DNA from: Thermoanaerobaculia bacterium
GTDB taxonomy: Bacteria; Acidobacteriota; Thermoanaerobaculia; UBA5066
Length of the DNA: 64,000 nucleotides
Assembly (NCBI GenBank): GCA_963719225.1
Contig: CAVRAY010000001.1
Span: 1,248,001-1,312,000, forward strand
Direction of reading: 5' to 3'
Part shown: piece by piece, positions 29,947 through 49,484 of the stretch
Numbering within the stretch: the first letter of the stretch is position 1
How the letters are laid out: each line of letters begins with the position of its first letter
The notes under the pieces: generated by a model
What the model saw: only the letters and a program-made list of their open reading frames with translations
What the model was told of the DNA's origin: nothing
The model's database searches: none
Position numbers and translations under genes: made by a program

Positions 29947-29975
29947 ACTGGCGCCGGCTCTTGTAAGATTTGCGA

Positions 29976-29990
29976 TGGCCCCGGCATTGC
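29976..29990 (+). promoter_or_regulatory. sigma54 -24/-12 promoter candidate (pseudo-kinase/NtrC operon)
   Basis: TGGCCCCGGCATTGC (GG-N10-GC) in the intergenic gap. Confidence 0.55.
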
Positions 29991-30036
29991 ACCCCGGATC
30001 TCTACATGCGATCTCCGATTCCGCGAAAGGGCCGTC

Positions 30037-30717
30037 ATGGTGCGTGAGACCTTCGAGCAGCAGCGGCTGGGAGCGACTCTTCGCGCGTGCCGCGCGCTGC
30101 GGCACGAGTTCGCGACGCCCCTCTCGGCCGCGGCCCTCCATCTCGAGGTCGCGCGGCGCGCCGCAGCCCGCGCCGAAGAGGAAATCCCCGAGAAGCTGCG
30201 CGCCGGCCTCGAGACGGGCAAGGAGCAGCTCGACGAGGCGTCCCGTCTCCTGGAAGGCCTCACGGCCATCGGGAGCGCGCACGAAGGAGACCCCGGGCTC
30301 CTGGATTTCGCGGCGCTCGTGGCGCGCACGGGCCGGCTTCGCGTGCCCGAGCTGGAGCGGCAGGGGCTCACGCTGCAGAGCGCCGGACCTTCCGACGGTG
30401 CGCTCGTGGACGGATTCCTCGACGAGCTCGAGAGCGCGACCGGGGAGGCGCTCCTCACCGCGGCCCGCTGGTCCGCGCCGGGCAACGCCCGTCTCGAGAC
30501 GCGCCTCGCGGACGGGACCGTGTCGTTCTCGTTCCGGGTCCTGCTCGCGCGCGGCGCTCCCGGCGACATGCTTTTCAAGACGCGCAGCCGCCCGAACGCC
30601 GGGCTCGGCCCCTTCCTCGCGCGCTGGACCTTCGAGGCGCACGGGGGGCGGCTCGAGGGGGCCGAGGACGGAAAACACCTGACCGTGACAGGATCCCTGC
30701 CTCTGGTGAACGCATGA
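30037..30717 (+). CDS. Sensorless histidine-kinase-like protein (H-box intact, ATPase domain degenerate)
   Basis: ALRHEFATPLSAA H-box; GLGPFLAR and HGGRL remain, but no N-box Asn or DxGxG. Confidence 0.7.
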   Translation: MVRETFEQQRLGATLRACRALRHEFATPLSAAALHLEVARRAAARAEEEIPEKLRAGLETGKEQLDEASRLLEGLTAIGSAHEGDPGLLDFAALVARTGRLRVPELERQGLTLQSAGPSDGALVDGFLDELESATGEALLTAARWSAPGNARLETRLADGTVSFSFRVLLARGAPGDMLFKTRSRPNAGLGPFLARWTFEAHGGRLEGAEDGKHLTVTGSLPLVNA

Positions 30718-32177
30718 AAGTACTCGTCGTCGAAGACGACTCCGAGACCCGAAAAGGAGTTCAGCTGCTCCTCGAGGAGTTCGATCTCGACGTGAAAGCC
30801 GCGTCGACGCTCGCCGAGGGGCGCGCCGCGCTCGCTTCGTTCGATCCGGACGTCTGCCTCACGGATCTCCAGCTTCCCGACGGAGACGGCATCGACTTCA
30901 TCCGGGATGCGCGCGCCGCGGATCCGCGGCGTGAGATCGTGGTTCTGACGGGCCACGGATCGCTCGACACGGCGGTGGAAGCGATGAAGGCGGGCGCCTT
31001 CGACTACCTCGTCAAGCCGCTTCGTCCCGTGCAGCTCGAGGCCGTGCTCGAGCGTCTCCGCCCCGGCGGCTCTCCGCAGGACACGGACGCCGCCCTGTGG
31101 AAGACGCTCGACGAGACCGGACATTTCGGGGCGATGGTGGGGGTCTCGAACGCCATGCGGGAGACCTGCGCCGTCATCGCGCGCATCGCGCGCTCGGACG
31201 CGCCCGTCATGATCACGGGTGAGAGCGGCAGCGGCAAGGAGGCGGCGGCTCAGACGATCCACTCGCTGTCGCGCCGGCGCGAGAAGCCGCTCGTGGCGAT
31301 CAACTGCGGCGCGGTCGCTGCGAACCTCATCGAGAGCGAGCTCTTCGGTCACGAAAAAGGCGCGTTCACGGGAGCCGACAAGCGCCGCGCGGGATACTTC
31401 GAGCTCGCCCACGGCGGCACGTTGTTCCTCGACGAGATCACCGAGATGTCAGCCGACCTGCAGGTCAAGTTCCTCAGGGTGCTCGAGACGCGCTCGTTCC
31501 GGCGCGTCGGCGGGAACGAAGAGATCGGCAGCGACGTGCGCATCATCTCGAGCTCGAATCGCGATCTTCTCGAGGCCGTCGAGAAGAAGACCCTCCGCGA
31601 AGACCTCTATTACCGCCTCAACGTGTTCCCGCTGCACATCGTTCCCCTTCGCGAGCGCCGCGAGGACGTCGCCGTGCTCGCGAAGCACTTTCTCGACCTC
31701 GTGGCCGAAAACGAGGTGGCGGGTCGTCGTACTTTTTCGGCCGCCGCTCTCGAGAGGATGGCTGCCCATCCCTGGCCCGGCAACGTGCGCGAGCTCCGGA
31801 ACGTCGTTCACCGCGCGTACGTGCTGTCCGACGACGGAGTGGTGGACGAAGCGGTCGTGGCGGCCGTCCTCGCCGGCCGGTCGAGCGGCGTCTACTCGTC
31901 GGTGCGACCGCCTGCGCCGGCGCCGCAGCGGGCCGCCGCCGAGACTCCCGCGGCCACCGACGCGCCTGCCGTCCCCGCGGCGGCCGAGGCGTCCGCGTCG
32001 GACGATCCGCTCCGCGTGCCGGTCCGCGTGGGAGACTCGCTCGAGGACGTCGAGCGCCGCCTCCTGGAGCGCACGCTCGCCGCGGTGGGCGGCAACAAGA
32101 AGAAGGCCGCCGAGATCCTCCGCGTGAGCCTCAAAACCGTCTACAACAAGATCAAGCAATACAAGCTCGAGTCCTGA
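30714..32177 (+). CDS. sigma54-dependent response regulator (NtrC/AtoC family: receiver, AAA+, Fis HTH)
   Basis: [53 protein letters not shown] and [13 protein letters not shown] motifs. Confidence 0.95.
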
Positions 32178-32200
32178 TCCCGGTCCGTTTCCGGATCAGG
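32173..32200. terminator. Hairpin between convergent stop codons (possible bidirectional terminator)
   Basis: CCTGATCCCGG...CCGGATCAGG; no U-tract. Confidence 0.35.
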
Positions 32201-35200
32201 GGCCGGATGCGTATTGGCGCGCCACGCGCAGGAGCTCCGCGGGGACGAGGGGCTTCTTGAGAAAGCCCGCGTCGTTTCGCCGGGGAGGCGCGAATCCCGG
32301 GGCCGCGATGCCCGACATGACGACGATCGGCAGCGAGGCGAGGGAGGGCTGCTCCTCGATCTTCCGTACGAACGACCAGCCGTTCATCCGCGGCATTTCG
32401 AGGTCGACGAGGACGAGGCGCGGGCGGAGTCCGGCGTCGAGGTGCTGCAGAGCCTCGAAGCCGTCCTCGGCCCCGATTCCGCTGAAACCTTCGTCGTCGA
32501 GAAGCCGGAGGATGCCGTCGCGCAGCGCGCGGTCGTCGTCCACGACGAGGACGTCCGGCTGGCTTCGCGGCGGAACGCTCTGGCTCCGTCGCCCGGCCCG
32601 GCCGGTCGGGCGCCGCACGGTTGCGGCCGCCGCGGCCGTGCTTTCACGCGCCTGCGTCGCCGCGCCGAGGATGCCCTTGACCTCGTGAACACCTCCGTCG
32701 TCCACGAGCGCCACGACGTTGCCCGGAATCGGCTTCCCGTCCACGGTGAGATCGCGAACGCCGGTCGTCCTTCCATCCGGATTCTCGATCCGGATCTTCC
32801 AGACGGTGGTGCCGATCCGGAGAGAGACGGAATAGAAGGGCCAGGTCCCGGGGATCCGGGGGTTCAGCCTCAGCTCGGCGCCCCTGCGATTCAGGCCGAG
32901 AAGGCTCTCCGTGGCGACGCGGTAGAGCCAGCCCGCCGAGCCGGTGTACCAGGTCCATCCCGCCCGACCGAGATGGGCGGGATGTGCCGCGACGTCTCCC
33001 GCCACCACGTACGGCTCCCCTCCGTAGCGGATCGCGGCGGCCTCGGTGCGCGTGTGGTTCACGGGATTCACCATGTGGAAGAGCTCCAGCGCCTCGTCGG
33101 CGGATCCCAGCGCCGCCGCCGCCATGACGACCCATGCGGCGGCGTGCGTGTACTGGCCGCCATTTTCGCGGATGCCCGGGGGATAGCCCTTGATGTAGCC
33201 GGGCTCTTCGGGACCGTGGTCGAACGGAGGGGTGAGAAGCGTGACGATCTCCGCGTCCCGTCTGACGAGCCGCGACCGTACGGCATCCATGGCTCGCTCG
33301 GCGCGGGCTGCCGGTGCCGCGCCGGAGAGCACCGCCCACGACTGGGCGATGGAGTCGATCTGGCCGTCCACGTTCCGGCGTGACCCGAGCGGGGCGCCGT
33401 CGTCGAACGTTCCACGCCGATACCACTCTCCGTCCCACGCGAGGTCGAGCGCGTGACGCAGGCGTTCGGCTTCGCTCCGATAGCGCGCGGCGCGCGCGGA
33501 ATCGCCGCGCGCCTCGCAGAGCGCGGCGAACGGAACGAGGATGGAAAACTGGAAAAAACCGAGCCAGACGCTCTCGCCCCGGCCCTGGGACCCCACCTCG
33601 TTCATGGCGTCGTTCCAGTCCCCCGTGCCGATCAAGGGGAGGCCCTGCGCTCCCGCCGTGAGAGCGGCGTCCATCGCGCGCGCCGCGTGGCCGAAGAGCG
33701 TGTCGCTCTCGGACGAGGTCGCCGGCTCGAGATACGACTCGCGCTCGCCTTCGGCGAGGAGAGGTGCCTCGAGATACGGAGCTCTCTCGTCCCAGACGGA
33801 GGCGTCGCCCGTGACCTCGACGTACCTCATCGCCGCCCACGGAAGCCAGAGGAGGTCGTCCGAGCAGCGCGTTCGCGTGCCGCGCCCGGATGGTTCGTGC
33901 CACCAGTGCTGGACGTCCCCCTCCCGAAACTGGCGGCCGGCGGCCCTGACGAGATGCCCACGTGCGAGATCGGGTCTGATGAGCACGAGCGAGGACACGT
34001 CCTGGAGCTGGTCCCGGAAGCCCCACGCCCCGCCGGGTTGGTAATAGCCCGTACGCGCGAAGACGCGCGAGGCGATCACCTGGCAAGGGAGCCATCGGTT
34101 CACGAGGAGATCGAGAGAGTCGTCGGGAGTCTCGACGACGAGCGCGTCGAGCGTCTCGTCCCAGAAGGATCGGACGCGCTCCCTCTCCCGGGCGGCCTCG
34201 TCCGGCATGGAGAAGCGGGCCGCGAGTCGACGGGCCTCCTCCTCGTCACTTCCCTGGCCGAGGAGGAAAGCGAGCGTCCTGGTTTCGCCCGGCGCGAGAT
34301 TCACGAAGACGTGCAGCGCCGCGCAGGGATCGAAACCGCCGCCCGTGCGGCCGGAAAGTCGGGCGCGGTGCGGACCTTCGGCCGACCGCAGGTTTCTGAG
34401 GGGCCCCAGAAACTCGCGCCGGTCCGCCGTGTAGGAAACGACGGGCTCGCTCGAAGCGAAGAAGGCGACGTGCCCGCTGAAGTCCGCGTTCGCCGGGTTG
34501 CGCGCCAGAATCGCGCGGACGTCCCCCGCGAAAGAGGTGACGACGTGTCGCGGCGCTTCGGGGCGCGGCGGGCCGAGAGCCCACGCGGCGTAGCCGAAGA
34601 TGGAGAGGCGGCGCGCCCGAGCGTTCGTGTTCTCGAGCGTGAGGAGCACGACCTTCACCGGTTCTTCGCGGGCGACGAACGTCTCCAGGGAGTGAGTGAT
34701 TCCCACCGTGGTTCGCCGGAAACGGGTCCGGCCCGCTTCGTGCGTCACGTGCCAGCGCGCCGTCCTATCCCGCGGGAGAGCTCCTGGCGTCGCGCCGAAG
34801 ACGTCGCGCGTCTCGTCGTCGCGCACGAAGACGGCCTCCGGCAGCGGGTCGCTCACCGGGTCGTTCGCGAAAGGCGTCAGGCGGTTTTCCCGGCTGTTTT
34901 CGGCCCAGGTGGTCACGGCGCCGGCTGTCGTCACCAGGGAGCCGAAGCGTGGATTCGCGAGGACGTTCGCCCAGGGGTGCGGCGTCTCGCGTGCCCCGTC
35001 GAGCACGATCTCGTAGGTGCGGCCGCCTTCGCCGAAGCCGCCGAAGCCGTTCGCCATCTTCAGGCCGGCCGGCTCCTCCTCCTCTTCTTCCGGGACGGTT
35101 CGTGGCCTCTGGGCGGGGGGCGAGGAAGGCTCCACGAGGAAGGGTGCGGCGCGGTCGAGCTGCATCGCGAGGCTCCCGTCGGTTCCGCGGAGAACCGCGC

Positions 35201-38200
35201 GCGCGTACGCGAGGAGCGCCCTGTGCTCGTCCGCGCTCAGGAGATCCACGCGCAGGAGGAAGACTCCGCCGCTCTGGCCCGCGCGCGATGCCCAGGGACC
35301 GTGCTCGACGAGAAGCGTGAGGAGGTCGTGCACCTCCTTGCGATAACCCTCCTCGTGCTCGTTCAGGAGGATCAGGTCCGCCGCGAGACCCTTGAGGCGC
35401 CAGTACTCCTGTGCCTCGAGGGCCTGCCGCGCCAGGGCGAGGTCCTGCGCGCGCTCGATGCGCACGGTGAGAAGGGGCAGGTCGCCCGAGATCCCGTGAC
35501 GCCAGAGCGCCGAAACGTCGAGCGTGTTGGCCTCGTGGACCTCGGGTGGCGCGGCGAGCGTCCGATCCGAGCCCACGACCCTCGAGGCCAGCCTCTCGAA
35601 GAGACGCGCTTCCTCGGGCGTCAGGCCGAGATGCCGGACCGCGACCTGCGCATGCGTTCGCGCGAGCGCGAGGGCGCGCACTCCGGCGGAAGGGTCGTGG
35701 TATTTCTGGGCGAAGGCGAGCGCGCCCTCGCGCGTGTCCGCGACGCCCGTCGTGAACGTGAGGCGCGCGATCGCGCCCGGCGCGAGCCGCACACGCTGCC
35801 TCAGGCTGAGAATCGGGTCGAGCACCGTGCCCGTGGTTCCCGTGAGCGCCCGGCTCTCCATCGCCTCCGGATCCGACCCGTCGCGTCCGCGCCCGTAGAA
35901 GCGCGCGCGGTCGGTCTCCCATTCCAGAGGTCCCTGCGGCCGTGCCGCGACCGCGAGGACGTGGACGGCGAAGACCGCCTTCTCGCCGGCCGCCCGCGGG
36001 CGGCGCGCGCAGAGGAGAGCCGAGTCCGAGGAAACCGCTTCCGTCTCGAGGAAGAGCTTGCCGAAGGCGGGATGCGCGACGTCGTCCTGCGCTTTCGCGA
36101 GCGCGATCTCGACGGCGCTCGTCGCCTCGATCTCGCGCGTCGTGCCGCTCAGATTCGTGAGCGTCAGACGGCGGACCTCGACGTCGTCCTCCGGGGAGAC
36201 CGCGATCTCGAGCAGCGACTCGATCTCCGCGTCGCGCCGCCGGAACGACGCGAGCTCCGGAAGAAACGTGACCCGGTAGAGCTCGGGCTCGTGCCGCGTG
36301 GGGGCATACGTGGCAGACCAGACGACGCCGCTGCGCACGTCGCGAAGGTAGAGAGCGTTGGAGACAGGATCGGAAGTGGGATCCTCGCGGTGGCGCGCGA
36401 CCGAGAGGCCGCGCCAGAAGCTCGCGCCTCCGCCCGCCTGTGTGACCGCGGAGACGAGGCTGCCGTTGGAGAGGTACTGGGTGACCGGAAACGGCTGGAG
36501 GGGAGAGCGATGGAGGCGCGGCGCCGCGGCCGGCGAGGTCGGCAGCGGAAGGACCTCCTCTTCCGTGGGGCGCGGCTGGGGCACCGGGGCTTCGCGGGGC
36601 GGACGTTCCTGGAGCAGGAGCTCGGTCGCGCGGACGCGAGGATCGGCATGGAAGCGCCTCACCATCACGTCGTCGAGAAGCACGTTCGCGAACGCGACGA
36701 GGCTCATGCCCTGGTGGTGCGCGAATACCGTGCGGACGACGACGCCGCGACCGTCCGCCGTACGCTGGAGGGCGTGAGGCTCGGCCGGGGCGTCTCCCTC
36801 CGTGTAATCGACCGCATCCCAGAAGCCCCACGGGCCTTCGGCGCCGGCGGCCGAGAATGCGCGCAGGTTCCTCACGGCTTTCACGGGCTGGAAGAGGGCT
36901 GCGAGCGCGGAGGCGTAGGGCGCCACGACGAGGTCCTCGTCGAGGCCCCGGCGAAAGCCGAGCCCGGGGACGCCGAAGGCCCGGTACTGGTGCTCGCCCA
37001 CGAGGTCCGTGACGCGAAACGCGGACTCGGAGGCTCCCCAGGGCACGCCGTGCGCGCGGCCCCACTCCTCCTGACGGCGGATCGCCATCCGGCACGAGGC
37101 GTCGAGGAGAGTCTCCCGATAAGTGCGCGTGAACAGGAGAGGCATCAGATACTCGAACATCGAGCCGCTCCAGGACAGGAGCGTGGGAATCCCGTGCAGG
37201 TTGACGGCGAGGCGCCCGAGCCGGAACCAGTGGCTCTGCGGAACGTCGCCCTTGGCGATGGCGAGGAAGCTCGTGAGCCGCGCCTCCGAGGCGAGAAGGT
37301 CGTAGAACGTCTCGTCGCGTTTCACCGTGTCGTGGATCCCGGGGCGGCAGCCGGTCACGAAGAGTCCCCGCGAGGCGTTGTAGAGGGGGCGAAAGTCCAT
37401 GCCGTCGGCCAGCGCCAGGGCTCGACGGGCGAGGTCCTCCGCGTGAACCCGGTCCTTCTCGGCCGTGAGCTCGCGGAGGCCGTGAGCGAGCACGAGAAGA
37501 CAGGCGGCCAGGTTTCCGCTGTCGACCGTCGAAACATATCGGGGCTCGAGCGGCTCGAGCGTCCGCGTGTCGTACCAGTTCAGGACGTGCCCTCTCCAGC
37601 GCTCGAGACCCTCGACCGTGCGAAGAGTCCGATCGAGTCGCGCGAGGAGGCGGTCCGTCTCGAGCCAGCCGAAGTCGTGGGCGGCGAGGTCCGCGAGCAG
37701 TGCGAGCCCGATGTTCGTGGGGGAAGTCCGCGGCGCGATCAACGGAGGACTCTCGTCCCGTTCGGCGGCGAGATTGTCCGGGACGAGACCGTTCGGGTCC
37801 CCGTGGACGAGCTCCTCGAAGTAGCCCCACGTCTTCCGCGCGGTCTCGAGGAGGAAATCCCGGTCGTCCGACGGAAGCGTCTCGCGGCCGAACGGCGCCG
37901 CGTGGCTGAGCCACCAAGCGAGGACGGGGCTGAATGCCCAGAGGACGAGCAAGGGCGCCGCGAGGGGCAGGGCCGAAGGCCGAATGGCGGCCACCAGGAG
38001 AGCGAGGAGCGTCGCCGAGAGCGGGCTCGAGATCATCTCGCCGAAGAACGAACGCGGTCCCCCCGTGGCGAGGAGCCCGGCGGCGCGCGCCGCGGCCTTG
38101 GCGAAGGTCTCCCACTCGAGGAGCCGCCGCCCCGTGACGACGAGGCGCACGAGCGTGAGAACGATCGCGTGAACGGATTCGAACGCATAGTGGGGCAGGA

Positions 38201-40793: not shown

Positions 40794-40806
40794 CCCCAAC
40801 GCCGTC

Positions 40807-40821
40807 GCAAGCTCCACGCCA
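40807..40821 (-). promoter_or_regulatory. sigma54 promoter candidate (glucan synthase)
   Basis: Minus strand TGGCGTGGAGCTTGC. Confidence 0.55.
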
Positions 40822-40912
40822 CGTTTCGGGTCCCGCTTTCGCCTCCGCGTCGAGTGGAATTTGGAAAAGTTTCAACCGGAAAGGAGGCGATTGGCGATAA
40901 TCTCGCCAATTC

Positions 40913-41938
40913 GTGGCAACGATTCCGGGAACGACGACGATTCCAGCGACCGCAACGCCGGCGCGGGAGGACTTTCACTTCTCCCGGGAGCGCGAGCCGC
41001 ATGCCCAGCGGGCCCGCGAGATCCTGCGCCGCCATGCCGAGATTCGTTCCTGTGCGGGACGAAACGCGTGGAGTGCTCTTCTCGTGGCCCTTCTCGTCTT
41101 GCTGCAAACTTCGTTGGCCGCGCTAGTGTCCCATCTTCCGATCTGGGCGGCTCTCCTCGTCGCGTTCCTCGTGGGGGCCTTCCTGGATCACACCCTCTGG
41201 GTGCTGATCCACGAGTGCTCTCACAACCTCGTGTTCCGCCGTGCGTCCTGGAATCGCCTGGCCGCCATCCTCGCGAATCTTCCGCACGTCCTGCCGAGCG
41301 CCATCTCGTTCCAGACCTACCACCTGAAGCACCACGCGTATCAGGGCGTCTACGAGCTGGACGCGGACATCCCGAGTCGCTGGGAAGCGCGCCTCGTCGG
41401 CCATTCCGCGCTCATGAAGGCGTTGTGGCTCCTCTTGTTTCCGATCTTCCAGGTCACCCGGCCTCCGCGCCTCCGCGAGATCACCCTTTTCGGTCCGTGG
41501 GTGTTCGCGAACATCGGGGTGCAGGTCGCCTACGACGTCGCGGTGTGGATGGCGCTCGGCCCCAAGGCTCTCCTGTATCTCACCGTCTCGTTCTTCTTCT
41601 CGGTCGGCCTGCATCCGCTCGGAGCGCGCTGGATCCAGGAGCACTACCTCGTCTTCGAGGAGCAGGAGACGTCGAGCTACTACGGCCCGCTGAACGCCGT
41701 CGCGCTGAACGTCGGACATCACAACGAGCACCACGACTTTCCGTCCGTGCCGTGGAACCGGCTTCCGGCGATTCGGCGCGCCGTGCCCGAGGTGTACGAC
41801 GCCCTTCCCTCGCACCGATCGTGGACGCGGCTGCTGCTGCGGTTCGTTTTCGACCGCAAGCTCTCGCTGTTCAGCCGCACGATCCGCTCCGAACGCGGTC
41901 CCAAAGCGCCTCCCCAGGGCGATCCGGCCGCGTCCTGA
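40913..41938 (+). CDS. Membrane fatty acid desaturase, sphingolipid delta-4 desaturase (DEGS1/DES1)-like
   Basis: EDF...EPHAQRAREIL N-terminus; His boxes HECSH, HLKHH, HNEHH; GLHPLG...EHY and SYYGPLN...NVG motifs. Confidence 0.85.
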   Translation: MATIPGTTTIPATATPAREDFHFSREREPHAQRAREILRRHAEIRSCAGRNAWSALLVALLVLLQTSLAALVSHLPIWAALLVAFLVGAFLDHTLWVLIHECSHNLVFRRASWNRLAAILANLPHVLPSAISFQTYHLKHHAYQGVYELDADIPSRWEARLVGHSALMKALWLLLFPIFQVTRPPRLREITLFGPWVFANIGVQVAYDVAVWMALGPKALLYLTVSFFFSVGLHPLGARWIQEHYLVFEEQETSSYYGPLNAVALNVGHHNEHHDFPSVPWNRLPAIRRAVPEVYDALPSHRSWTRLLLRFVFDRKLSLFSRTIRSERGPKAPPQGDPAAS

Positions 41939-41947
41939 AATATCTGC

Positions 41948-41962
41948 TGGCACGGGCCCTGC
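41948..41962 (+). promoter_or_regulatory. sigma54 promoter candidate
   Basis: TGGCACGGGCCCTGC followed by an AGGAGGA RBS and ATG 41985. Confidence 0.65.
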
Positions 41963-41984
41963 TCTGACGAGGCAGGAGGAGACC

Positions 41985-42428
41985 ATGCAGCACCGCAAGG
42001 ATCCGTTTTTCCTGGGCGCGCTGAGTGCGGCGCTTCTCGTTTCTGCTTTCGGGTGCGCCAAGGAGCCGGGAACGATCGAGAAGAAGTCGGAGTCGACGAC
42101 GCAGACCTCGCGCGGCGAGGTGAAGACGACCAGCGAGTCCACTCAGACCGGCAACACCCTCGAGGCAAAGACGGAGACGAAGACCGACACGGCGGGCCCC
42201 AACATCAAGGGCAAGGTCGAAACGTTCGTGGGGACCGTCACGGAGTACGTACCGGGCAAGAAGATCGAAGTCATGACCGGCGAGAAGAAGAAGCACAGTG
42301 TCGCGCTCGACTCCAAGGACACGACCGTGGCGATCGATACCGCGGTCGCCGTCGGCTCCCGGGTGCGCCTGACGGAGCAGACAGGAGACGACCAGTCGCG
42401 CCGCGTGACGGTCAAGATCGAGGGCTGA
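41985..42428 (+). CDS. Hypothetical lipoprotein
   Basis: Lipobox-like SAFGC, Thr/Lys/Glu-rich; paralogous to 47506..47850. Confidence 0.8.
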   Translation: MQHRKDPFFLGALSAALLVSAFGCAKEPGTIEKKSESTTQTSRGEVKTTSESTQTGNTLEAKTETKTDTAGPNIKGKVETFVGTVTEYVPGKKIEVMTGEKKKHSVALDSKDTTVAIDTAVAVGSRVRLTEQTGDDQSRRVTVKIEG

Positions 42429-42475
42429 GAGAATCCTCCGGGGGACAGGGTCGATGATCTCGAACCCGGAGGTTT

Positions 42476-44263
42476 ATGTCGCTTGAGACCACAGGAAGTG
42501 GCGCGCGATGGCGGCCGCACGGGATGGACACCCGGCTCGCGGTCGCCATCGGCGTGACGTTCAGCGCGCTTCTGCTTCTCGTTTCCGTGACCTGGGTGAA
42601 CACGTCCCGGCTCATCCAGGACGCCCGGCTCGTGGACCACACCAAAGACGTGATCGGCGAGCTCGAGGGCGCGTTCTCGGCGATCAAGGACGGCGAGACG
42701 AGCCAGCGGGGCTTCCTCCTGACCGGCTCGGACTCCTATCTCGACCCCTACCGGGCCGCCGTCGCCGATCTTCCCCGGCGGCTCGAGCGGATCGCCTCCC
42801 TCACGGCCGACAGTCCCGCCCAGCGGACGCGCGCCACGATGCTCCGGCACCTCACGGAAGAGCGTCTCTCCGAGATGGGCCGCACGATCGAGATGGCCCA
42901 GGGCGGCCGAGAGGATGAGGCGCGGGCTTTCCTGAAGACGGGGGTCGGCAAGAGGACGATGGATGCGATCCGGCAGCTCGTCGTGGAGATGAAGGCGGAA
43001 GAGCGTGCGCTCCTCTCCATCCGGGACCGGCGCTCGAGCGAGACGGCTCGCACCCTGCTCACCACGCTCGGAATCGGCTGCGCGCTCCTCTTCGGCTTTC
43101 TGGTCCTCATCTGGTATCTCATCCGCGCCGACATCACGCGTCGCAACAGCGCCGAATCAGCGATTCGTGAGCGGGAGGCACGCATCCGCCGGCTCATCGA
43201 CGCAAACCTGATCGGCGTTCTCTTCTCGGACGACGGGCACGTGACGGACGCCAACGGGGCGTTCCTCTCGATCATCGGGATCGACCGCGAGAGCTGGAAA
43301 CCGCACACGCACAGCCTTTTCGACTTCACGGCGCCCGAGTTCAAGGAGCTCGACGAAAACTGCGAAAAGGCCCTCCGCGAGACCGGCACGTGCCCCCCCT
43401 ACCAGAAAGAGCTCGTGCGTTTGGACGGGACGCGCGTCCCCGTGCTCTTCGGCGCGACGAACGTGGACCTGGGCGGATCGGGACCGGTCCGTGCGTCGTT
43501 CGTCGTCGATCTCTCGGAGCTCAAGAGGCTCGAGACCGAGCGCAATCGCCTGTACGAGGAAGCTCGTGACGCCGTGAAGGCGCGCGACGCTTTCCTCTCG
43601 GTCGCCGGCCACGAGATCCGGACACCCCTGTCGGCCCTGAACCTGATCGTCTACCAGCTCGCGCGGCAGGTCCGGGCGCTCGGAAACGAAAAGGCGATCG
43701 ACCTCGCGGCGCGGAGCGAAAAACAGGTCGCGCGTCTCATCCGGCTCGCCGACGAGCTGCTCGACGTGTCGCGCATCTCGGCGGGCTCCCTGCACCTCGA
43801 TCCCGAAGAAATGGATCTCTCCCTCCTCGCCCGCGAAGCGGGGGAGAGGCTCGAGGAAAGCGCGCGGCGCGCCGGCTGCGGCCTCACGGTCGAGGCGCCC
43901 GCGGGCGTGACCGGGTTCTGGGATCGCCTCCGGCTGGAGCAGGTCGTCTCGAACCTGCTCACGAACGCCTTGAAGTTCGGGGCCGGCGAGCCCGTGGAAG
44001 TGCGTGTCTCGTCCGTCGGAGACGAGGCGATTCTCCTGGTATGCGACCACGGCATCGGGATCCACGATTCCGACAAGCCGCGGATCTTCGGAAGGTTCGA
44101 GCGAGCCGTCTCACGAGAAACCTACCCCGGCATGGGGCTCGGACTCTGGATCACGCGCGAGATCGTCGAGGCGCACGGGGGAAGGATCGGCGTCGAAAGC
44201 CGTCCCGGCGCCGGAGCCACGTTTCGGGTCACGTTGCCGAGACGAACGGGAGAATTGAAATGA
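42476..44263 (+). CDS. Sensor histidine kinase (CHASE3-PAS-HisKA-HATPase)
   Basis: DGETSQRGFLLTG...YLDPY (CHASE3), PAS, GHEIRTPL, NLLTNALKF, DHGIGI and GMGLGL motifs. Confidence 0.93.
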   Translation: MSLETTGSGARWRPHGMDTRLAVAIGVTFSALLLLVSVTWVNTSRLIQDARLVDHTKDVIGELEGAFSAIKDGETSQRGFLLTGSDSYLDPYRAAVADLPRRLERIASLTADSPAQRTRATMLRHLTEERLSEMGRTIEMAQGGREDEARAFLKTGVGKRTMDAIRQLVVEMKAEERALLSIRDRRSSETARTLLTTLGIGCALLFGFLVLIWYLIRADITRRNSAESAIREREARIRRLIDANLIGVLFSDDGHVTDANGAFLSIIGIDRESWKPHTHSLFDFTAPEFKELDENCEKALRETGTCPPYQKELVRLDGTRVPVLFGATNVDLGGSGPVRASFVVDLSELKRLETERNRLYEEARDAVKARDAFLSVAGHEIRTPLSALNLIVYQLARQVRALGNEKAIDLAARSEKQVARLIRLADELLDVSRISAGSLHLDPEEMDLSLLAREAGERLEESARRAGCGLTVEAPAGVTGFWDRLRLEQVVSNLLTNALKFGAGEPVEVRVSSVGDEAILLVCDHGIGIHDSDKPRIFGRFERAVSRETYPGMGLGLWITREIVEAHGGRIGVESRPGAGATFRVTLPRRTGELK

Positions 44264-44313
44264 AGATCCTGACCGTGCAGGACGACGACGCGATCGCGCA
44301 AGCCTCGCGCTGA
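44260..44313 (+). pseudogene. 17-codon remnant of a response-regulator N-terminus
   Basis: ATGA-coupled to the kinase; MKILTVQDDDAIAQASR* resembles receiver beta1-alpha1. Confidence 0.5.
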
Positions 44314-44366
44314 AAGAGCGAGAACGCCCCGGCCCCGCGGGCTAAGGGGCGTTGCGCAGAACCGGG

Positions 44367-44516
44367 TCAGACGACGCGTCGGCCCCCGATGACCTGGATC
44401 AGGACGACGACGATCGCGATGACGAGCAGGACGTGGATGAAACCGCCCATGGTGTACGACGTGACCATCCCGAGGAGCCATAGCACGAGAAGAATGACGA
44501 AAATGGTCCAGAGCAT
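44367..44516 (-). CDS. lmo0937-family small membrane protein (copy 1, 49 aa)
   Basis: MLWTIFVILLVLWLLGMVTSYTMGGFIHVLLVIAIVVVLIQVIGGRRVV; GGAGG RBS. Confidence 0.88.
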   Translation of the reverse strand: MLWTIFVILLVLWLLGMVTSYTMGGFIHVLLVIAIVVVLIQVIGGRRVV

Positions 44517-44544
44517 GTAGGTTCCCTCCCGTCTGATGGATTGA

Positions 44545-44588
44545 GCAACTGCCGTGCCGTGCAAAGACGTGCAAGGAATGGATCGTGC
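44545..44588. promoter_or_regulatory. Back-to-back sigma54 promoter candidates (copy 1)
   Basis: Minus CGGCACGGCAGTTGC (44545-44559) and plus AGGAATGGATCGTGC (44574-44588). Confidence 0.6.
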
Positions 44589-44632
44589 GGTGAGGCGGGG
44601 CGTGAGGGCACCGGCGTGCGCTGCGCGCCCTG

Positions 44633-44945
44633 TTGCCCCGGCGTTCGAAAGCCCGAATACGGCTGAGCGAAAGCGTGACCGGTTCCGGACGGGAGTTCTT
44701 CAAAGCCGCCTGCACGAGGGGCCTCGAGGGCATCGTCTCGAAACGCCGCGACGCGCGGTACCGCTCCGGCCGGGGCGACGCGTGGCTGAAGGCGAAGTGC
44801 CATCGGGAGCAGGAGTTCGTAATCGGGGGATTCACGGAGCCCGAGGGCTCGCGTCCCTTTCTCGGCGCTCTCCTCCTCGGCGTCTACGGCACGAGCGGAA
44901 AACTCGAGCGAGAAGGAGCGCGCGTGAGGGCGCGCGGCCCGGGCG
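44633..44945 (+). pseudogene. ligD: Internal fragment of an ATP-dependent DNA ligase (LigD ligase domain)
   Basis: GLEGIVSKRRDARYRSGRGDAWLKAKC...QEFVIGGFTEPEGSR..LGALLLGVY; lacks the KxDG motif and most of the OB fold. Confidence 0.75.
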
Positions 44946-45947
44946 TCAGGGCTCCTTCGAGGGCGCTTCGAGGAGGCCGAGCAGGCTCTTTTCCGCCACG
45001 TCGAGCCCCGTCCGCGACGCGAGGGCGTCCACGGATTCGACCGGACGCTCCACGGTGATTCCCTTCTCGAAGTTCTCCAGGATGCGCGGGGCGATGTACG
45101 ACGCGCGGGTGACGGCCGGAGTGTTGTGAAGCGCTTCGGAGGTCTCGCGGACCGCCTCGGCCACGACGCGCTTCGTGGGCGCCTCCCCTCGGGCCGCTGC
45201 CCGCGCGAGCGCGCCCGCGCACAGGAGGCTCCCGGCCCAGGTCCGGAAATCCTTGGCTGAGAATTCACCGTCAATCCGGTCGTGGATGTAGGCGTTGAGA
45301 GCTTCGGGCTTCACGGCCACGAGGGTTCCGTCCTCGTTTTCGTGGCGGAACAGAGGATTGCCTTCCCGTGAGAGCAGCTCCGTGAGGACGCGCACCGCCG
45401 CCCGGTCCCGGATGACCATGCGATGCTCCTTCCCGCTTTTTCCCGTGAATTCGAAAACCACGCCTCCCCGTTCGCGGCGCACGTGCCGCCGGCGGAGCGT
45501 CGTCAGTCCATAGCTGCGGTTCTCCCGCTCGTAAGCCGCGCTTCCCGGACGGACGAAGTGGCACATGAGGATGCGGGCCATGCACGCGAGCACGCGCTCC
45601 TGCGACAGTCCCTTCGACGCGAGATCGGCTGCGACGGCCCTTCTGAGCCTGGGAAGCGACTGGATGAAGCGCCCGAGGCGCGCGAATTTTCGACGATCGG
45701 TCCGCCGGACCCATTGCTCGTGGTAGATGTACTGCCAGCGTCCGGCCCGGTCCCGGCCCACGGCCTGCAGCTTGGAAGCTGCCGAGAGCGAGACGTGGAC
45801 GTTCGTCCAGGCGGGAGGGATCCGCAGCGCGGCAATGCGCTTCAGGACCGAAGGAGGCGCCGGAAAGGAACGGGCGTCGGACCATTCCACCTTCGAACCG
45901 GACGAGCGGCGGAAGCCGGTGCGCTCGAGGCGCTCGATCGAAGTCAT
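44946..45947 (-). CDS. DNA topoisomerase IB (bacterial, poxvirus-like)
   Basis: IPPAWTNV, GRDRAGRWQYIY, RPGSAAY, SYGLTTL, FTGKSG, SAKDFRTW and LHNTPAVTRASYI (catalytic Tyr). Confidence 0.93.
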   Translation of the reverse strand: MTSIERLERTGFRRSSGSKVEWSDARSFPAPPSVLKRIAALRIPPAWTNVHVSLSAASKLQAVGRDRAGRWQYIYHEQWVRRTDRRKFARLGRFIQSLPRLRRAVAADLASKGLSQERVLACMARILMCHFVRPGSAAYERENRSYGLTTLRRRHVRRERGGVVFEFTGKSGKEHRMVIRDRAAVRVLTELLSREGNPLFRHENEDGTLVAVKPEALNAYIHDRIDGEFSAKDFRTWAGSLLCAGALARAAARGEAPTKRVVAEAVRETSEALHNTPAVTRASYIAPRILENFEKGITVERPVESVDALASRTGLDVAEKSLLGLLEAPSKEP

Positions 45948-45960
45948 CGTCCCGTCTTCC

Positions 45961-45975
45961 GCAAGGTCCGAGCCA
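45961..45975 (-). promoter_or_regulatory. sigma54 promoter candidate (topoisomerase IB)
   Basis: Minus strand TGGCTCGGACCTTGC. Confidence 0.55.
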
Positions 45976-45990
45976 GGCGGGAAGGAATGC

Positions 45991-46614
45991 TCATCGAGAC
46001 TTCCGGTCGAGGCGGGCCGGCCGCGACCCCGTGCGAGGCGCGCCGCCGAGACCTCGGTATTCCAGCTCGACGCCGCTCCGGGCGTGACGCAGCAGGAGCC
46101 CGCCGCGGCTCATGTCGCCGCGTCCGACGAAGGCGGCCGGAAACCGCAGGCCCTCCCCGAACACCTCCGAGAGGACGACGGCATATTTTTCGGTGGCGAT
46201 GCTTGCGAGCAGAACAACCTCGAGATCCGGGGCCTGCGCGCGCAACGCGGCGGCGTCGCGACGGAAGGGCCCGGTGAAGGCCGGATTCGCCGGGTCGATG
46301 CCGTCGCCGCCGAAGGAAAGCACGCGATCGACGCCCATCGGATGCGTCGGCGGCCTGAGTCCCTCGTTGGGCGTGACGACGAGGACGCCGGGAACGCTTT
46401 CAGGCGGCCGTGCGAACGTGCGCGCGTAGGCGAGCTTGCCCCGGAAGTAGAGGCCGCTCAGGAAGGAAAATACGTCTCCGAGCGGGGCTTCACCGCTGCG
46501 AACGGCCTCGGCGAGCGGGAAGCGCGCACGGGGCGAAAGCAGCAGCGACGCGCGCTTCCCCCGGCATGACGCCGGCGAAAGGACGAAGATTCGGTGAGCT
46601 GTCGCGCTGCTCAG
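45991..46614 (-). CDS. Hypothetical protein (probable CTG start overlapping the lmo0937 stop)
   Basis: RIFVLSPA...FSFLSGLYFRGKLAYA...VLLASIATEKY...FVGRGDMSRGGLLLR reads as a globular domain; no canonical start between 46614 and the domain. Confidence 0.7.
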   Translation of the reverse strand: MSSATAHRIFVLSPASCRGKRASLLLSPRARFPLAEAVRSGEAPLGDVFSFLSGLYFRGKLAYARTFARPPESVPGVLVVTPNEGLRPPTHPMGVDRVLSFGGDGIDPANPAFTGPFRRDAAALRAQAPDLEVVLLASIATEKYAVVLSEVFGEGLRFPAAFVGRGDMSRGGLLLRHARSGVELEYRGLGGAPRTGSRPARLDRKSR

Positions 46615-46763
46615 ACGACGGGACGCCTGCCTTGAATGACGCGGATCAGGACGACGACGATGGCGATGACGAGAAGGACGTGGATGAAACCGCCCATCGT
46701 GTACGAGGTCACCATCCCGAGAAGCCACAGCACAAGGAGAATGACAAAAATGGTCCAGAGCAT
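46611..46763 (-). CDS. lmo0937-family small membrane protein (copy 2, 50 aa)
   Basis: First 40 aa identical to copy 1; AGGAGG RBS. Confidence 0.88.
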   Translation of the reverse strand: MLWTIFVILLVLWLLGMVTSYTMGGFIHVLLVIAIVVVLIRVIQGRRPVV

Positions 46764-46789
46764 GTTGCTTCCTCCTATTCCCGAACAGA

Positions 46790-46823
46790 GCAACTGCCGT
46801 GCCGCGCATGGAACGGATCGTGC
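46790..46823. promoter_or_regulatory. Back-to-back sigma54 promoter candidates (copy 2)
   Basis: Minus CGGCACGGCAGTTGC (46790-46804) and plus TGGAACGGATCGTGC (46809-46823). Confidence 0.65.
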
Positions 46824-46846
46824 TGTCAATCGGGGAGGAGGACGGC

Positions 46847-47464
46847 ATGGCTCTCTATTCGGCACAGGATTTCACGAGGCTCCTTGGAACGCCGGGGTTC
46901 AGCGACGCACTGCTGACGCAGCATTTCGAGCTCTATCGCGGCTATGTGAAGAACGCGAATGCCCTTCACGACGAGCTCGAGGCCGCGTCACCCGGCAAGT
47001 CGCCTGCTCCGTACTGGTCGGAGCTCAAGCGCCGCTTCGGCTGGGAGTGGAATGGAATGCGGCTTCACGAGATGTATTTTGGAAATCTGACAAAGAACCG
47101 GCCGGCGCTGGAAAAGGGTGCCGGTCTCGGGGCGCAGATCAACCGCGACTTCGGCTCGCACGAGGCGTGGGAGAAGGAATTCCGCGCGACCGGTAGCCTC
47201 CGGGGAATCGGATGGGCCGCGCTCGTGTGGGACGCCCAGGTGCGCCGGCTCTTCAACGTCTGGATCGACGAGCACGACCGCGGCCAGCTCGCCGGGTGCC
47301 CGGTGCTTCTTCTCATGGACGTCTTCGAGCACGCGTTCATGACCGACTACGGCACGAAGCGAGCGGATTACATCGAAGCGTTCCTCGCGGCCGCGGATTG
47401 GGACCTCGCGTCCCACCGCTTCGAGCTCGCGAACGCGCAGGTTCACGTCTCGGCGCACGCGTGA
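46847..47464 (+). CDS. Fe/Mn superoxide dismutase family protein (ChrC-like)
   Basis: QHFELYRGYVKN, NGMRLHEMYFGNL, GIGWAAL and LMDVFEHAF motifs; GGAGGAGG RBS. Confidence 0.88.
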   Translation: MALYSAQDFTRLLGTPGFSDALLTQHFELYRGYVKNANALHDELEAASPGKSPAPYWSELKRRFGWEWNGMRLHEMYFGNLTKNRPALEKGAGLGAQINRDFGSHEAWEKEFRATGSLRGIGWAALVWDAQVRRLFNVWIDEHDRGQLAGCPVLLLMDVFEHAFMTDYGTKRADYIEAFLAAADWDLASHRFELANAQVHVSAHA

Positions 47465-47466
47465 GC

Positions 47467-47481
47467 TGGCACGCGGGGTGC
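47467..47481 (+). promoter_or_regulatory. sigma54 promoter candidate
   Basis: TGGCACGCGGGGTGC followed by a GGAGGT RBS and ATG 47506. Confidence 0.6.
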
Positions 47482-47505
47482 AGCTCAGGATTCGGGAGGT
47501 GTTGT

Positions 47506-47850
47506 ATGAATCGCAAGTTTTTCTCTTCCGCCCTATCCGTCCTTCTCCTCGGAGGAACGGCCGCCTTCGCGGACGACAAGCCGATGGAGAAGAAAGACGA
47601 AACGAAGGTCACGACGACGGAAGGCACGATGAAATCGAAGGATCACATCGTCGTCGGAGTCGTGAAGGAGTATCGGGCCGGCGAAAAGCTCAAGGTTCTC
47701 GTCGGAAAGAAGACGCATTCGTTCGACCTCGACGAGAAGAAGGTGAGCACCACCGTCGATCCGGCGGTCGCGGTCGGCACCAAGGTGAAGGTCATCGAAT
47801 CGAAGGACGCGAACGGGAACAAGACGCTCACCGTGAACCCCACGAGCTGA
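47506..47850 (+). CDS. Hypothetical secreted protein
   Basis: Signal peptide ending AFA, Lys/Thr-rich; paralogue of 41985..42428. Confidence 0.8.
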   Translation: MNRKFFSSALSVLLLGGTAAFADDKPMEKKDETKVTTTEGTMKSKDHIVVGVVKEYRAGEKLKVLVGKKTHSFDLDEKKVSTTVDPAVAVGTKVKVIESKDANGNKTLTVNPTS

Positions 47851-47877
47851 GAGCCCCTTTCTCGTCGCACCTTCGAC

Positions 47878-47907
47878 GGGGACGTCCTCACGGACGTCCC
47901 CTTTTTT
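47878..47907 (+). terminator. Rho-independent terminator
   Basis: GGGGACGTCC-TCAC-GGACGTCCCC followed by TTTTTT. Confidence 0.85.
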
Positions 47908-47940
47908 CCTTGTTCGTCGTGTAACCCGTTGATGATTCCC

Positions 47941-47955
47941 TGGCACATCAGTTGC
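47941..47955 (+). promoter_or_regulatory. sigma54 promoter candidate (ferritin-like gene)
   Basis: TGGCACATCAGTTGC, near consensus, just after a terminator. Confidence 0.75.
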
Positions 47956-47978
47956 TCCTTTCCGTGGGGAGGGCCGCC

Positions 47979-48578
47979 ATGAATCACGCCGCGAAGCGAG
48001 CCGAAGGCCTCAAGAAACCAGCGCCGGAGGGCGTTTTCCTCAGCGACGTCGTCGAGCTGCGCCGGCGCGCGCGGCGCGAGATCGAGGAAGGGGCGGTTAC
48101 GCCCGGATATCGCGCGGACCTCGAGAGTGTCGTGAAGATCCTCAACATCGCGCTGGCGACGGAGATCGTCTGCGTGCTGCGCTACAAGAGGCATTACTTC
48201 ATGGCCGACGGCATCCACGCCGACCCGGTGAAGACCGAGTTCCTCGAACATGCAACGGAAGAGCAGGCGCACGCGGACAAGATCGCGGAACGCATCCGGC
48301 AGCTGGGGGGAGAGCCGGACCTCGATCCGGCCAGTCTGCTGTCGAAGAGTCACACCGAGTATCAGGAAGGAACGTCTCTCCTCGAGATGATCCGGGAGGA
48401 TCTCGTGGCGGAGCGCATCGCCATCGAGTCCTACAAGGAGATGATCGCGTTCGTCGGCGAGAACGATCCCACGACGCGCCGGCTGTTCGAGTGGATCCTC
48501 GGCCAGGAAGAGGAGCACGCGGACGACATGGCGCATCTCCTCGTCTCCTTCGACGGAGAGAAAAAAGGGGGCACCTAG
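47979..48578 (+). CDS. Ferritin-like (bacterioferritin/Dps-like) protein
   Basis: LNIALATEIVCVLRYKRHY, EEQAHAD, RIRQLGGEP, EDLVAERIAI and QEEEHADD di-iron motifs. Confidence 0.9.
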   Translation: MNHAAKRAEGLKKPAPEGVFLSDVVELRRRARREIEEGAVTPGYRADLESVVKILNIALATEIVCVLRYKRHYFMADGIHADPVKTEFLEHATEEQAHADKIAERIRQLGGEPDLDPASLLSKSHTEYQEGTSLLEMIREDLVAERIAIESYKEMIAFVGENDPTTRRLFEWILGQEEEHADDMAHLLVSFDGEKKGGT

Positions 48579-49447
48579 GCCACCCGTCTCTTCCGCGGGG
48601 CCTTTCCCCCGCGGCGGGCGACGCTCGCACGCAACGCGTCCATCAGGTCGATCACACGGCCCTCTTCCTCCGGCTCCCCGGCGGCGGCGGCCGGAGCGGA
48701 GACGGAGGCTCCCTTCCTGGCGAGCAGCTTCTTCAGCGCCGTTCGATAGCGGTCGGGGTATTTCGCCGGATCGAGCGCCTCCTCCGACATCTGGTCGATG
48801 AGGAGGCGCGCCATCTTGATTTCACCGGTGCCCGCGGACAGGGATCCGGCGGCCGGCGGCGAAGCCACCTCCTCGAACGGCCGGAGCAGAATCGCGGCCA
48901 GGCCGTGCGGGATCGCGACGACGGCGGCCAGATGCTCGCGGGTCCTCAGCCTCAAGCGCCCCAGGCCGACGCGGTCCGAAGCCGCCAGGGCGTTGCGGAA
49001 GACCGCGAAGGACCGTGCTCCTCCTTCGTCCGGGATGACGTAGTAAGGCTGGTCATAGGTCAGCGGGTCGATGCGTCCCGCGCCCACGAACGAGAGGATC
49101 TCGAGCGCGTGGGCCTCGGTGCCGGCTCCCGCGTCCTTGCGCGCAGACGCGAGCTCTTCCTTTTCCACGACCGCCCATTTTCCCTTCGACACCTCGTATC
49201 CCTTCACCACGTCGTCGTCCGCGACTTCCACGTCCTCTCTGCTGCAGAACTTCCGGTATCGGATCGGGGCGAGGTCCTTTCGATGAAGAAGGTGGAAGCC
49301 CACGTGCTCGCGGGCGTCTACGGCGGGCACGAGCTCGACGGGAATCCCGACGAGCCCGAACGAAATCCTTCCCTTCCAGACCGCACGCCTAGCCGTGCGC
49401 GGAGAGTTCTTTACGTGAGCTTTCTTCTTCGTGGAGCTCTCGCGCAT
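48575..49447 (-). CDS. ku: Non-homologous end-joining protein Ku
   Basis: RAVWKGRISFGLVGIPV, VVKGYEV, DPLTYDQPYY, YPDRYR and VIDLMDALRASV motifs. Confidence 0.93.
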   Translation of the reverse strand: MRESSTKKKAHVKNSPRTARRAVWKGRISFGLVGIPVELVPAVDAREHVGFHLLHRKDLAPIRYRKFCSREDVEVADDDVVKGYEVSKGKWAVVEKEELASARKDAGAGTEAHALEILSFVGAGRIDPLTYDQPYYVIPDEGGARSFAVFRNALAASDRVGLGRLRLRTREHLAAVVAIPHGLAAILLRPFEEVASPPAAGSLSAGTGEIKMARLLIDQMSEEALDPAKYPDRYRTALKKLLARKGASVSAPAAAAGEPEEEGRVIDLMDALRASVARRGGKAPRKRRVA

Positions 49448-49469
49448 CGAAACCTCCTCCCGCGAGCTC

Positions 49470-49484
49470 GCAATGAACGTGCCG
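49470..49484 (-). promoter_or_regulatory. sigma54 promoter candidate (ku)
   Basis: Minus strand CGGCACGTTCATTGC, then GGAGGAGG RBS and ATG 49447. Confidence 0.7.

Follow-up and report, generated by a model that had tools for sequence, protein, structure and literature searches.

In a 64,000-nt stretch of a Thermoanaerobaculia genome (contig CAVRAY010000001.1, positions 1,248,001 to 1,312,000; hereafter the window), stress-type genes are gathered into an island around a gene for a sigma-54 activator, and the short intergenic gaps of this island, between positions 29,976 and 49,484, carry conserved -24/-12 sites. We consider it probable that the island belongs to a general stress response transcribed by sigma-54 and run by a single clade of activators. 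The literature attributes general stress responses to RpoS, SigB or EcfG, and these abundant soil Acidobacteriota appear to be without all three. For the control of ku, csbD, osmY-like and ferritin-like genes, the proposal points to a sigma factor and an activator clade, together with a candidate enhancer and a relay protein.

A sequence-only reading of the window had listed eleven GG-N10-GC 15-mers, and all eleven were recovered at exactly the positions and on the strands given, six of them with GGCAC. As that reading had proposed, we scored them with a position weight matrix, which was seeded with the published consensus TGGCACG-N4-TTGC (PMC4676750) and trained on 74 upstream sites outside the window. 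Ten reached 11.4-18.4 bits, namely 29976 (+, 12.5), 40807 (-, 14.4), 41948 (+, 16.5), 44545 (-, 15.0), 45961 (-, 14.7), 46790 (-, 18.4), 46809 (+, 14.3), 47467 (+, 11.4), 47941 (+, 16.4) and 49470 (-, 12.9), while the site at 44574 (+) scored 7.9 bits. These ten of the eleven lie in sense orientation just upstream of a gene and score above chance. In relatives, the -24 and -12 bases are invariant and the flanks drift. The distance from site to start codon is tight, with peaks at 10-14 and 20-29 nt. The site at 44574 is weak, lies beside a duplicate and is followed by an internal ligD fragment, so it is not credible as a ligD promoter. The adjoining duplicate spans 200 nt and is 83% identical to the lmo0937 segment at 46.6-46.8 kb, and within this duplication of the lmo0937-promoter segment 44574 is the partner that decayed, a copy of the superoxide dismutase (SOD) promoter.

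Genome-wide, we called 4262 genes with our own codon model in the assembly, which is 97% complete and 6% contaminated (C1 and C2 denote its contigs). Sites of at least 11 bits lie 8-80 nt upstream of 124 of 4261 genes in sense orientation. In antisense the count is 27 of 4261, divergent promoters among them, and mid-gene windows give 2 of 2824. As the sense count is far above both others, roughly 100 of the genome-wide sites are real. The window is the densest spot on its contig: of 14 consecutive genes, nine bear a site, whereas 1000 label shuffles never exceeded six. Housekeeping genes, at which the sequence-only reading would have expected equally frequent sites had it been wrong, are nearly free of them: a site stood before none of 56 tRNAs and, among 43 housekeeping genes identified by motif (or the leaders of their operons), before one. 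Pfam scans, run on every site-bearing gene except one, returned BON (four genes), DUF1328, lmo0937 (two), Ku, ferritin-like, SOD, topoisomerase IB, MscL, YihY, DUF421, DUF6496, AI-2E (two), hemerythrin (two), CBS (two), DUF2231 and holin-X, to which csbD was added after correction of its start. The stress genes are grouped in three islands, the window, C1:2.32-2.34 Mb and C1:2.48-2.50 Mb. The general-stress cargo proposed earlier is thus borne out, in that known general-stress families stand under one promoter type; the assignment of genes to stress families is our own and in part matches the Sphingopyxis EcfG regulon (PMC7083833). Eighteen of the 124 sites, including 45961 and 40807 in the window, end 10-14 nt before the start codon and would give nearly leaderless mRNAs. 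Near-duplicates on contig C2 (lpxC, signal peptidase, an HlyD-type gene, glyA and two close activators) may belong to the 6% contamination, slightly inflating the count of 124.

The same link between promoter and cargo, which the sequence-only reading had suggested looking for in related genomes, recurs in five families of the class at ku, lmo0937, DUF1328, csbD and BON genes. Single ku genes of the type used in non-homologous end joining carried a site of at least 9.5 bits within 8-100 nt in 13 of 16 cases, mostly 22-29 nt upstream; the genomic background at 8-80 nt was 145 of 4261. As a control, we used the best 30 Pfam Ku loci, most of which belong to a second Ku clade; members of that clade had sites in 0 of 28 cases. 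For lmo0937, 11 of 29 loci outside the genome of the window reached at least 11 bits within 120 nt, six loci of family f5 scored 7.3-10.6 bits and several genes lay behind a BON gene. Ferritin-like genes had a GG-N9-TGC match at 11 of 29 loci, with 13 of 29 coming immediately after a small gene of the same operon, and four of seven DUF1328 genes had a site of at least 10.9 bits. Outside the class, csbD sites were present at two of ten loci, both in a single genome (G155). A reverse test on own-genome homologues gave 25 of 34, a figure biased by 17 rows that are the queries themselves; the remaining rows gave 9 of 17. One unpublished genome (G025) entered the family tallies and supplied a single row each to the lmo0937 and Ku control sets, and the conclusions are independent of it. 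The second Ku clade (L373-L401; own copy at C1:1891480-1892343) is widespread in the class, lacks the WxG start as well as sigma-54 sites and is usually followed by a gene starting with a MerR-like helix-turn-helix (HTH).

The activator gene lies at 30714-32177 (+). By its domains, the product is of the NtrC type, with a receiver, an AAA+ domain carrying GAFTGA and Walker motifs, and a Fis-type HTH, as well as the clade marks LDEITEM and SLKTVYNKI. The sequence-only reading was therefore right about an intact GAFTGA activator with receiver and HTH, yet this protein is not the lone candidate, being one of 28 strong matches in the genome. It remained below every cut-off among the 25 NCBIfam models listed (NtrC, AtoC, ZraR, PspF, RtcR and others; NtrC 392 against 558.6) and is 46% identical to the Ralstonia activator adjoining rpoN2. 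A paralogue at C1:2325617 likewise follows a pseudokinase gene, and site density around these two exceeds that around every other activator of the 28, with nine and seven sites within 20 kb. In a FastTree phylogeny of 197 AAA+ cores (SH support, no bootstrap), both copies fell into an 88-row clade (SH 98), which also takes in orthologues of five further families of the class as well as Burkholderia, Ralstonia and Cupriavidus proteins. Matches at E 1e-105 were found in the own family, f1 (five of six genomes), the sister family, f2 (seven of seven), f3, f5 (13 of 13), f13 and f15; ten other families had none at this threshold. One 98% complete genome, G013, has neither the activator nor lmo0937 nor the ferritin-like orthologue, a joint absence that may reflect the loss of one island.

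Site-bearing genes concentrate around members of this clade. They made up 43 of 267 genes at 32 metagenome loci, 71 of 286 in f1 and 22 of 121 in f2 (16-25%), compared with 8 of 534 (1.5%) near other activators, an approximately tenfold difference, and 1 of 107 around sister-clade activators. The site-bearing cargo at these loci included CsbD (three), DUF1328 (three), KGG, GlsB, entericidin (two), ferritin and rpoN (three). The HTH of the window activator also retrieved Burkholderia and Ralstonia plasmid activators, whose neighbors are BON, DUF2795, DUF4142, DUF892, DUF1328 and YihY genes, with rpoN2 adjacent in Ralstonia; a B. glumae copy sits among insertion sequences without such cargo. One of 61 Myxococcota genomes had a clade-level match, adjoining a BON gene whose site scores 19.4 bits, and none of 31 Gemmatimonadota genomes had one at E 1e-108. 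The earlier notion of an activator clustered with its regulon holds insofar as clade members occupy such islands in other phyla, but the paralogue at C1:2325617 owns the island in which clear enhancer pairs occur. A full-length activator scan of GTDB contigs returned mostly unrelated activators, which we reused as control loci. The pattern of the recognition helix alone was rejected as a clade test, as it caught an ATPase-dead paralogue and missed f3, f5 and HTH-less members; in Gammaproteobacteria (mostly small genomes) it occurred in 5 of 201, two of which were not coding matches of the same peptide. At three metagenome loci (L217, L251, L257), a clade activator stands beside an rpoN gene with its own sigma-54 site, two of them also with ku.

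The best evidence for direct control of the cargo by the activator clade is a candidate enhancer, TG(T/C)AA-N3-TT(A/G)CA, which emerged from word counts on 55 promoters of metagenome and Burkholderiales loci (one locus being f1-type). With a matrix trained on these promoters, pairs of this putative enhancer, about 19-22 bp apart and approximately 50-170 nt upstream of the -24 element, were found at 14 of 65 f1 promoters, compared with 3 of 168 background promoters, and spacings other than 20-22 bp were nearly empty. In total, 15 f1 loci held 20 pairs, all in paralogue-type loci; five pairs lie in the 19-kb island of the paralogue, whereas 17 control loci (298 kb) had none. In f2, the orthologue consists of a receiver and an AAA+ domain and has no HTH, and pairs were found at none of 22 promoters and in none of six loci. 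Members of f2 also encode a receiver-AAA-HTH paralogue with a degenerate AAA+ domain (no GAFTGA), whose recognition helix is unchanged and whose surroundings are of the housekeeping kind (L313:8767-10008, L314, L316, L319, L322); the HTH-less active orthologue and this degenerate copy might act together, or one of them might be a repressor. A further hexamer, TTCCAA (9 of 40), formed no palindromes and was not replicated outside the family; it is probably half of the longer motif above.

Within the window, the candidate operator or enhancer half-pair TGTAA-GAT-TTGCG at 29960-29976 is separated by 1 nt from the -24 element downstream of it, which belongs to the pseudokinase-activator operon. 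It is the only match of at least 17 bits in the genome (17.1 bits), and relatives have a perfect TGTAA-N3-TTACA (G004) or a weaker match (G003) at the same position. Motif matches abut 3 of 345 sigma-54 sites (0.04 expected), and two of the three are in the window. Since the best match of the genome abuts the operon's own promoter, autoregulation of the pseudokinase-activator operon is likely. An operator so near the -24 element would overlap the holoenzyme footprint, so the feedback may be negative.

The operon opens with a sigma-54 site at 29976-29990 (+, 12.5 bits; conserved in G003), 46 nt before the gene for a sensorless histidine pseudokinase at 30037-30717 (+), a DHp domain with a degenerate CA domain and a predicted phosphotransferase or phosphatase. 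His23 is kept, whereas the N-box Asn and DxGxG are absent in 26 of 26 aligned rows, and the set of ATP-site boxes (N, G1, F and G2) that marks an active histidine kinase is not intact. Its structural model (pLDDT 90.6) is a sensorless DHp-CA core, for which DivL (4q20) is the top fold match. The pseudokinase gene precedes the activator gene in f1, f2, f5, f13 and f15, with a sigma-54 site in front in 5 of 11 f5 loci and in f15. In one f2 genome, it is reduced to a 70-aa helical stump, which suggests that function resides in the His hairpin. A phosphatase role is possible as well; the His is followed by ExxT, presumably a phosphatase-type motif.

With regard to sigma factors, rpoN, without which the sequence-only reading would have failed, is present as a single copy at C1:2047697-2049337. 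The genome further encodes RpoD, one group-2-like sigma and 19 additional sigma-70 region-2 matches. RpoS and SigB equivalogs were not found in this 97% complete genome, where the group-2-like sigma scored 198 against a cut-off of 378.7 for RpoS and 117 against one of 234 for SigBFG, and neither was NepR. EcfG- or SigB-type motifs occurred at none of 40 hand-picked cargo promoters.

The sites, their conservation, the gene content, the clade and the motif enrichment were computed directly; from them, we infer a course of phosphorelay, DNA binding, transcription and stress induction, with a division of labor between the paralogues. Sigma-54 holoenzyme would wait at about ten closely packed window promoters. 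Phosphate would pass from hybrid kinases through the His-retaining pseudokinase to the receiver of the activator, which would then open the promoters. In the island of the paralogue, the activator would bind paired TG(T/C)AA-N3-TT(A/G)CA enhancers two helical turns apart, while the window promoters, having no pairs, would be opened enhancer-free, as the HTH-less f2 orthologue must do. The single strong operator abutting the -24 element would feed back on the pseudokinase-activator operon, positively or negatively. In a wider form, for which we see about even chances, this would be a fourth type of general stress response beside RpoS, SigB and EcfG, consisting of sigma-54, one activator clade and one enhancer motif, and extending from Acidobacteriota to Burkholderiales. 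It would be fed by a pseudokinase relay in Thermoanaerobaculia, explain orphan rpoN2 loci, and have become enhancer-free in one family by splitting into an active copy without HTH and a DNA-binding copy whose ATPase is dead. If true, it would offer a function for the rpoN2 loci left unexplained by two Ralstonia papers and show that an activator can, in nature, lose its DNA-binding domain and its enhancers jointly.

Several results weigh against a sigma-54 general stress response centered on the window. No window promoter and none of the three orthologous islands has an enhancer pair, only single matches. Positive autoregulation, as claimed earlier, is supported as to autoregulation itself, but an operator abutting the -24 element fits repression equally well. 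Only about 23 of the 124 site-bearing genes belong to recognizable general-stress families; a similar number are envelope or export genes (LptD, LpxC twice, BamD, HtrA, signal peptidase twice, CreD, HlyD three times), amtB is site-bearing too and about 48 have no Pfam family. The sigma-54 set is thus broader than stress, comprising stress, envelope and nitrogen genes, which weakens the earlier claim of a sigma-54 general stress response; in its support are the presence of rpoN, the near lack of sites at housekeeping genes and the failure to find RpoS, SigB or NepR. The alternative label of a desiccation response is unsupported: catalase and OtsA were not found in the own genome, and its glgA has no site. 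Five tandem-ku loci, excluded from the 13 of 16 above, have leaders of at most 7.3 bits, giving 13 of 21 if included. In a five-genome prediction test of clade activator against cargo sites, three genomes fitted and two missed: G155 combines csbD sites and one strong enhancer-like pair (L490) with an activator of the sister clade alone, and in G056 lmo0937 has a site of 17.6 bits but no activator matched at E 1e-92. The f5/f13 orthologue reads GAFTNA, lies between atpC and topA and has sites at 6 of 231 nearby genes (2.6%). Finally, the motif and thresholds were set after inspection, and the related genomes are not independent. In f5/f13 (L353-L357, L359-L365), ku-ligD nonetheless retains a TGGAAC-N5-ATGC site, which is arranged back to back with that of a kinase gene.

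In an alternative view, the paralogue at C1:2325617 is the master activator and the window copy a genus-level duplicate whose main target is the operon it belongs to, possibly along with the glucan synthase, its proximity to the cargo being incidental. All 20 enhancer pairs are in paralogue-type loci and none in the three window-type loci, the window-type branch comprises three rows from one genus whereas the paralogue type is family-wide, and the window-type pseudokinase of G004 is cut to 50 aa. We nevertheless regard this as unlikely, given that the window copy is intact (GAFTGA, receiver Asp and helix), remains next to this cargo in G003, G004 and G019, and has the best single motif match of the genome at its promoter.

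Another reading is that sigma-54 is simply the export and envelope sigma of this lineage, a theme already in print (PMC3162934), with the island promoters answering several unrelated activators and no unified stress response. The genome encodes 28 activators, 60 of 117 site-bearing proteins look exported by a heuristic, compared with 819 of 3974 others, and G155 and G056 have sites but not the clade. Cytoplasmic Ku, topoisomerase IB, SOD and the ferritin-like protein are site-bearing, however, site density tracks this clade and not other activators, and the same cargo lies beside the clade in Burkholderiales, all of which makes this explanation quite improbable. Even less credible, in our estimate, is that sigma-54 merely blocks or poises the sites, with transcription left to the group-2-like sigma at C1:3092433 or an ECF sigma. 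Candidates are available in that sigma and the 19 further region-2 matches, and antagonism has been floated for Ralstonia RpoN2 (PMC4676750), but the group-2-like sigma belongs to a dnaK-hspR operon, the site-to-start distances are tight, several gaps are too short for a second promoter, and katE transcription in B. pseudomallei falls upon loss of rpoN2 (PMC4745423).

Among known systems, the Ralstonia solanacearum rpoN2 locus (RSp1667/RSp1668/RSp1671) and the Burkholderia RpoN2-katE link come closest to a sigma-54 stress response under this clade, and their activators fall into the same clade as that of the window; the activator at L137 would be RSp1667, judging by its position beside rpoN2. 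The window's genome differs from the Ralstonia locus in its single rpoN, its pseudokinase partner and the lack of an adjacent receiver-less second activator. Our comparison draws on portions of PMC4745423, PMC4676750, PMC12316311, PMC3162934, PMC13207237, PMC7083833, PMC3844500 and PMC4371752. In those portions, the rpoN2 papers assign no stress regulon and call the role of rpoN2 enigmatic, and single links appear: RpoN2 with katE, rpoN2 induction in minimal medium and a Bradyrhizobium plasmid RpoN tied to stress genes. Neither a sigma-54 general stress regulon nor this activator clade was found in the literature covered, mainly open papers, with supplements such as the gene lists of PMC12316311 outside its scope; the main-text portions of that paper contain neither 'Acidobacter' nor 'CsbD'. 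The alphaproteobacterial EcfG-NepR-PhyR system shares the cargo csbD, ecnAB, ku-ligD, mechanosensitive channel and envelope genes, the first four being direct EcfG targets in Sphingopyxis (PMC7083833). EcfG, RpoS and SigB systems are controlled via sigma release or stabilization, whereas here the promoters are of the -24/-12 type and control would lie with an AAA+ activator. The EcfG-NepR-PhyR system also has a phosphotransferase step upstream of its regulator, PhyT/PhyK.

HTH-less activators function without enhancers (PMC3844500, PMC3162934), and the f2 orthologue, with receiver and AAA+ domain, no HTH and no enhancer pairs, resembles FlgR, CtcC, FleT and the engineered DctD250; the window protein, in contrast, keeps its HTH, and its targets would be stress rather than flagellar or developmental genes. 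The pseudokinase shares the DHp-CA fold and a degenerate ATP site with Caulobacter DivL, but has no sensor domains and keeps the His, where DivL carries a Tyr. In keeping the His on this fold it resembles ChpT, yet ChpT is absent among the fold matches listed. PspF and RtcR are sigma-54 activators of stress genes, as reportedly is Myxococcus PexR; each of the three answers a single stress with a few operons, and the window activator is below the PspF and RtcR model cut-offs.

Downstream of the activator gene, a GT2/GH94 glucan synthase-like protein with a C-terminal receiver domain, which we take to be of the NdvB/ChvB type, is encoded at 32196-40793 (-); its start is uncertain, either 40793 or 40799 suiting the site at 40807-40821 (-, 14.4 bits), and a single enhancer-like match, TGGAA-AAG-TTTCA (40860-40876, 13.1 bits), lies about 40 nt upstream of that site. 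A second copy at C1:2344881-2353132 is apparently broken into pieces. The 16.5-bit site at 41948-41962 (+), conserved in relatives and abutted by an enhancer-like match (41934-41950, 12.0 bits), precedes a predicted exported protein without Pfam family at 41985-42428 (+), which has paralogues at 47506 and C1:2323818; an atlas search matched it to unnamed Acidobacteriota clusters only. Three members of the island, a sphingolipid delta-4-desaturase-like gene (40913-41938), a CHASE3-PAS kinase gene (42476-44263), whose product is a candidate input, and an open reading frame at 45991-46338, had no site of their own in the matrix scan. The last of these, located between topoisomerase IB and lmo0937, has no Pfam or NCBIfam match, and a longer frame extends to 46848. 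An Rfam scan of the window gave zero matches.

An lmo0937-family membrane peptide is encoded at 44367-44516 (-; site 44545-44559, 15.0 bits), followed by the decayed copy at 44574-44588 (+), not counted as a working promoter, and, at 44633-44902 (+), the piece from within a gene for an ATP-dependent DNA ligase (ligD). The DNA topoisomerase IB gene (44946-45947, -) has its site (45961-45975, 14.7 bits) only 13 nt upstream. The second lmo0937-family gene (46611-46763, -; site 46790-46804, 18.4 bits, genome rank 2) and the Fe/Mn SOD gene (46847-47464, +; site 46809-46823, 14.3 bits) stand back to back, with both sites kept in four relatives. Their divergent -24 elements are just 4 nt apart, the spacing of 4-6 nt is conserved, and simultaneous occupancy looks unlikely. 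The exported paralogue (47506-47850, +) has a conserved site from 47467, 2 nt past the SOD stop codon (11.4 bits), the ferritin-like gene (47979-48578, +) one from 47941 (16.4 bits), and the Ku gene (48575-49447, -), whose product scores above the TIGR02772 cut-off, one at 49470-49484 (12.9 bits).

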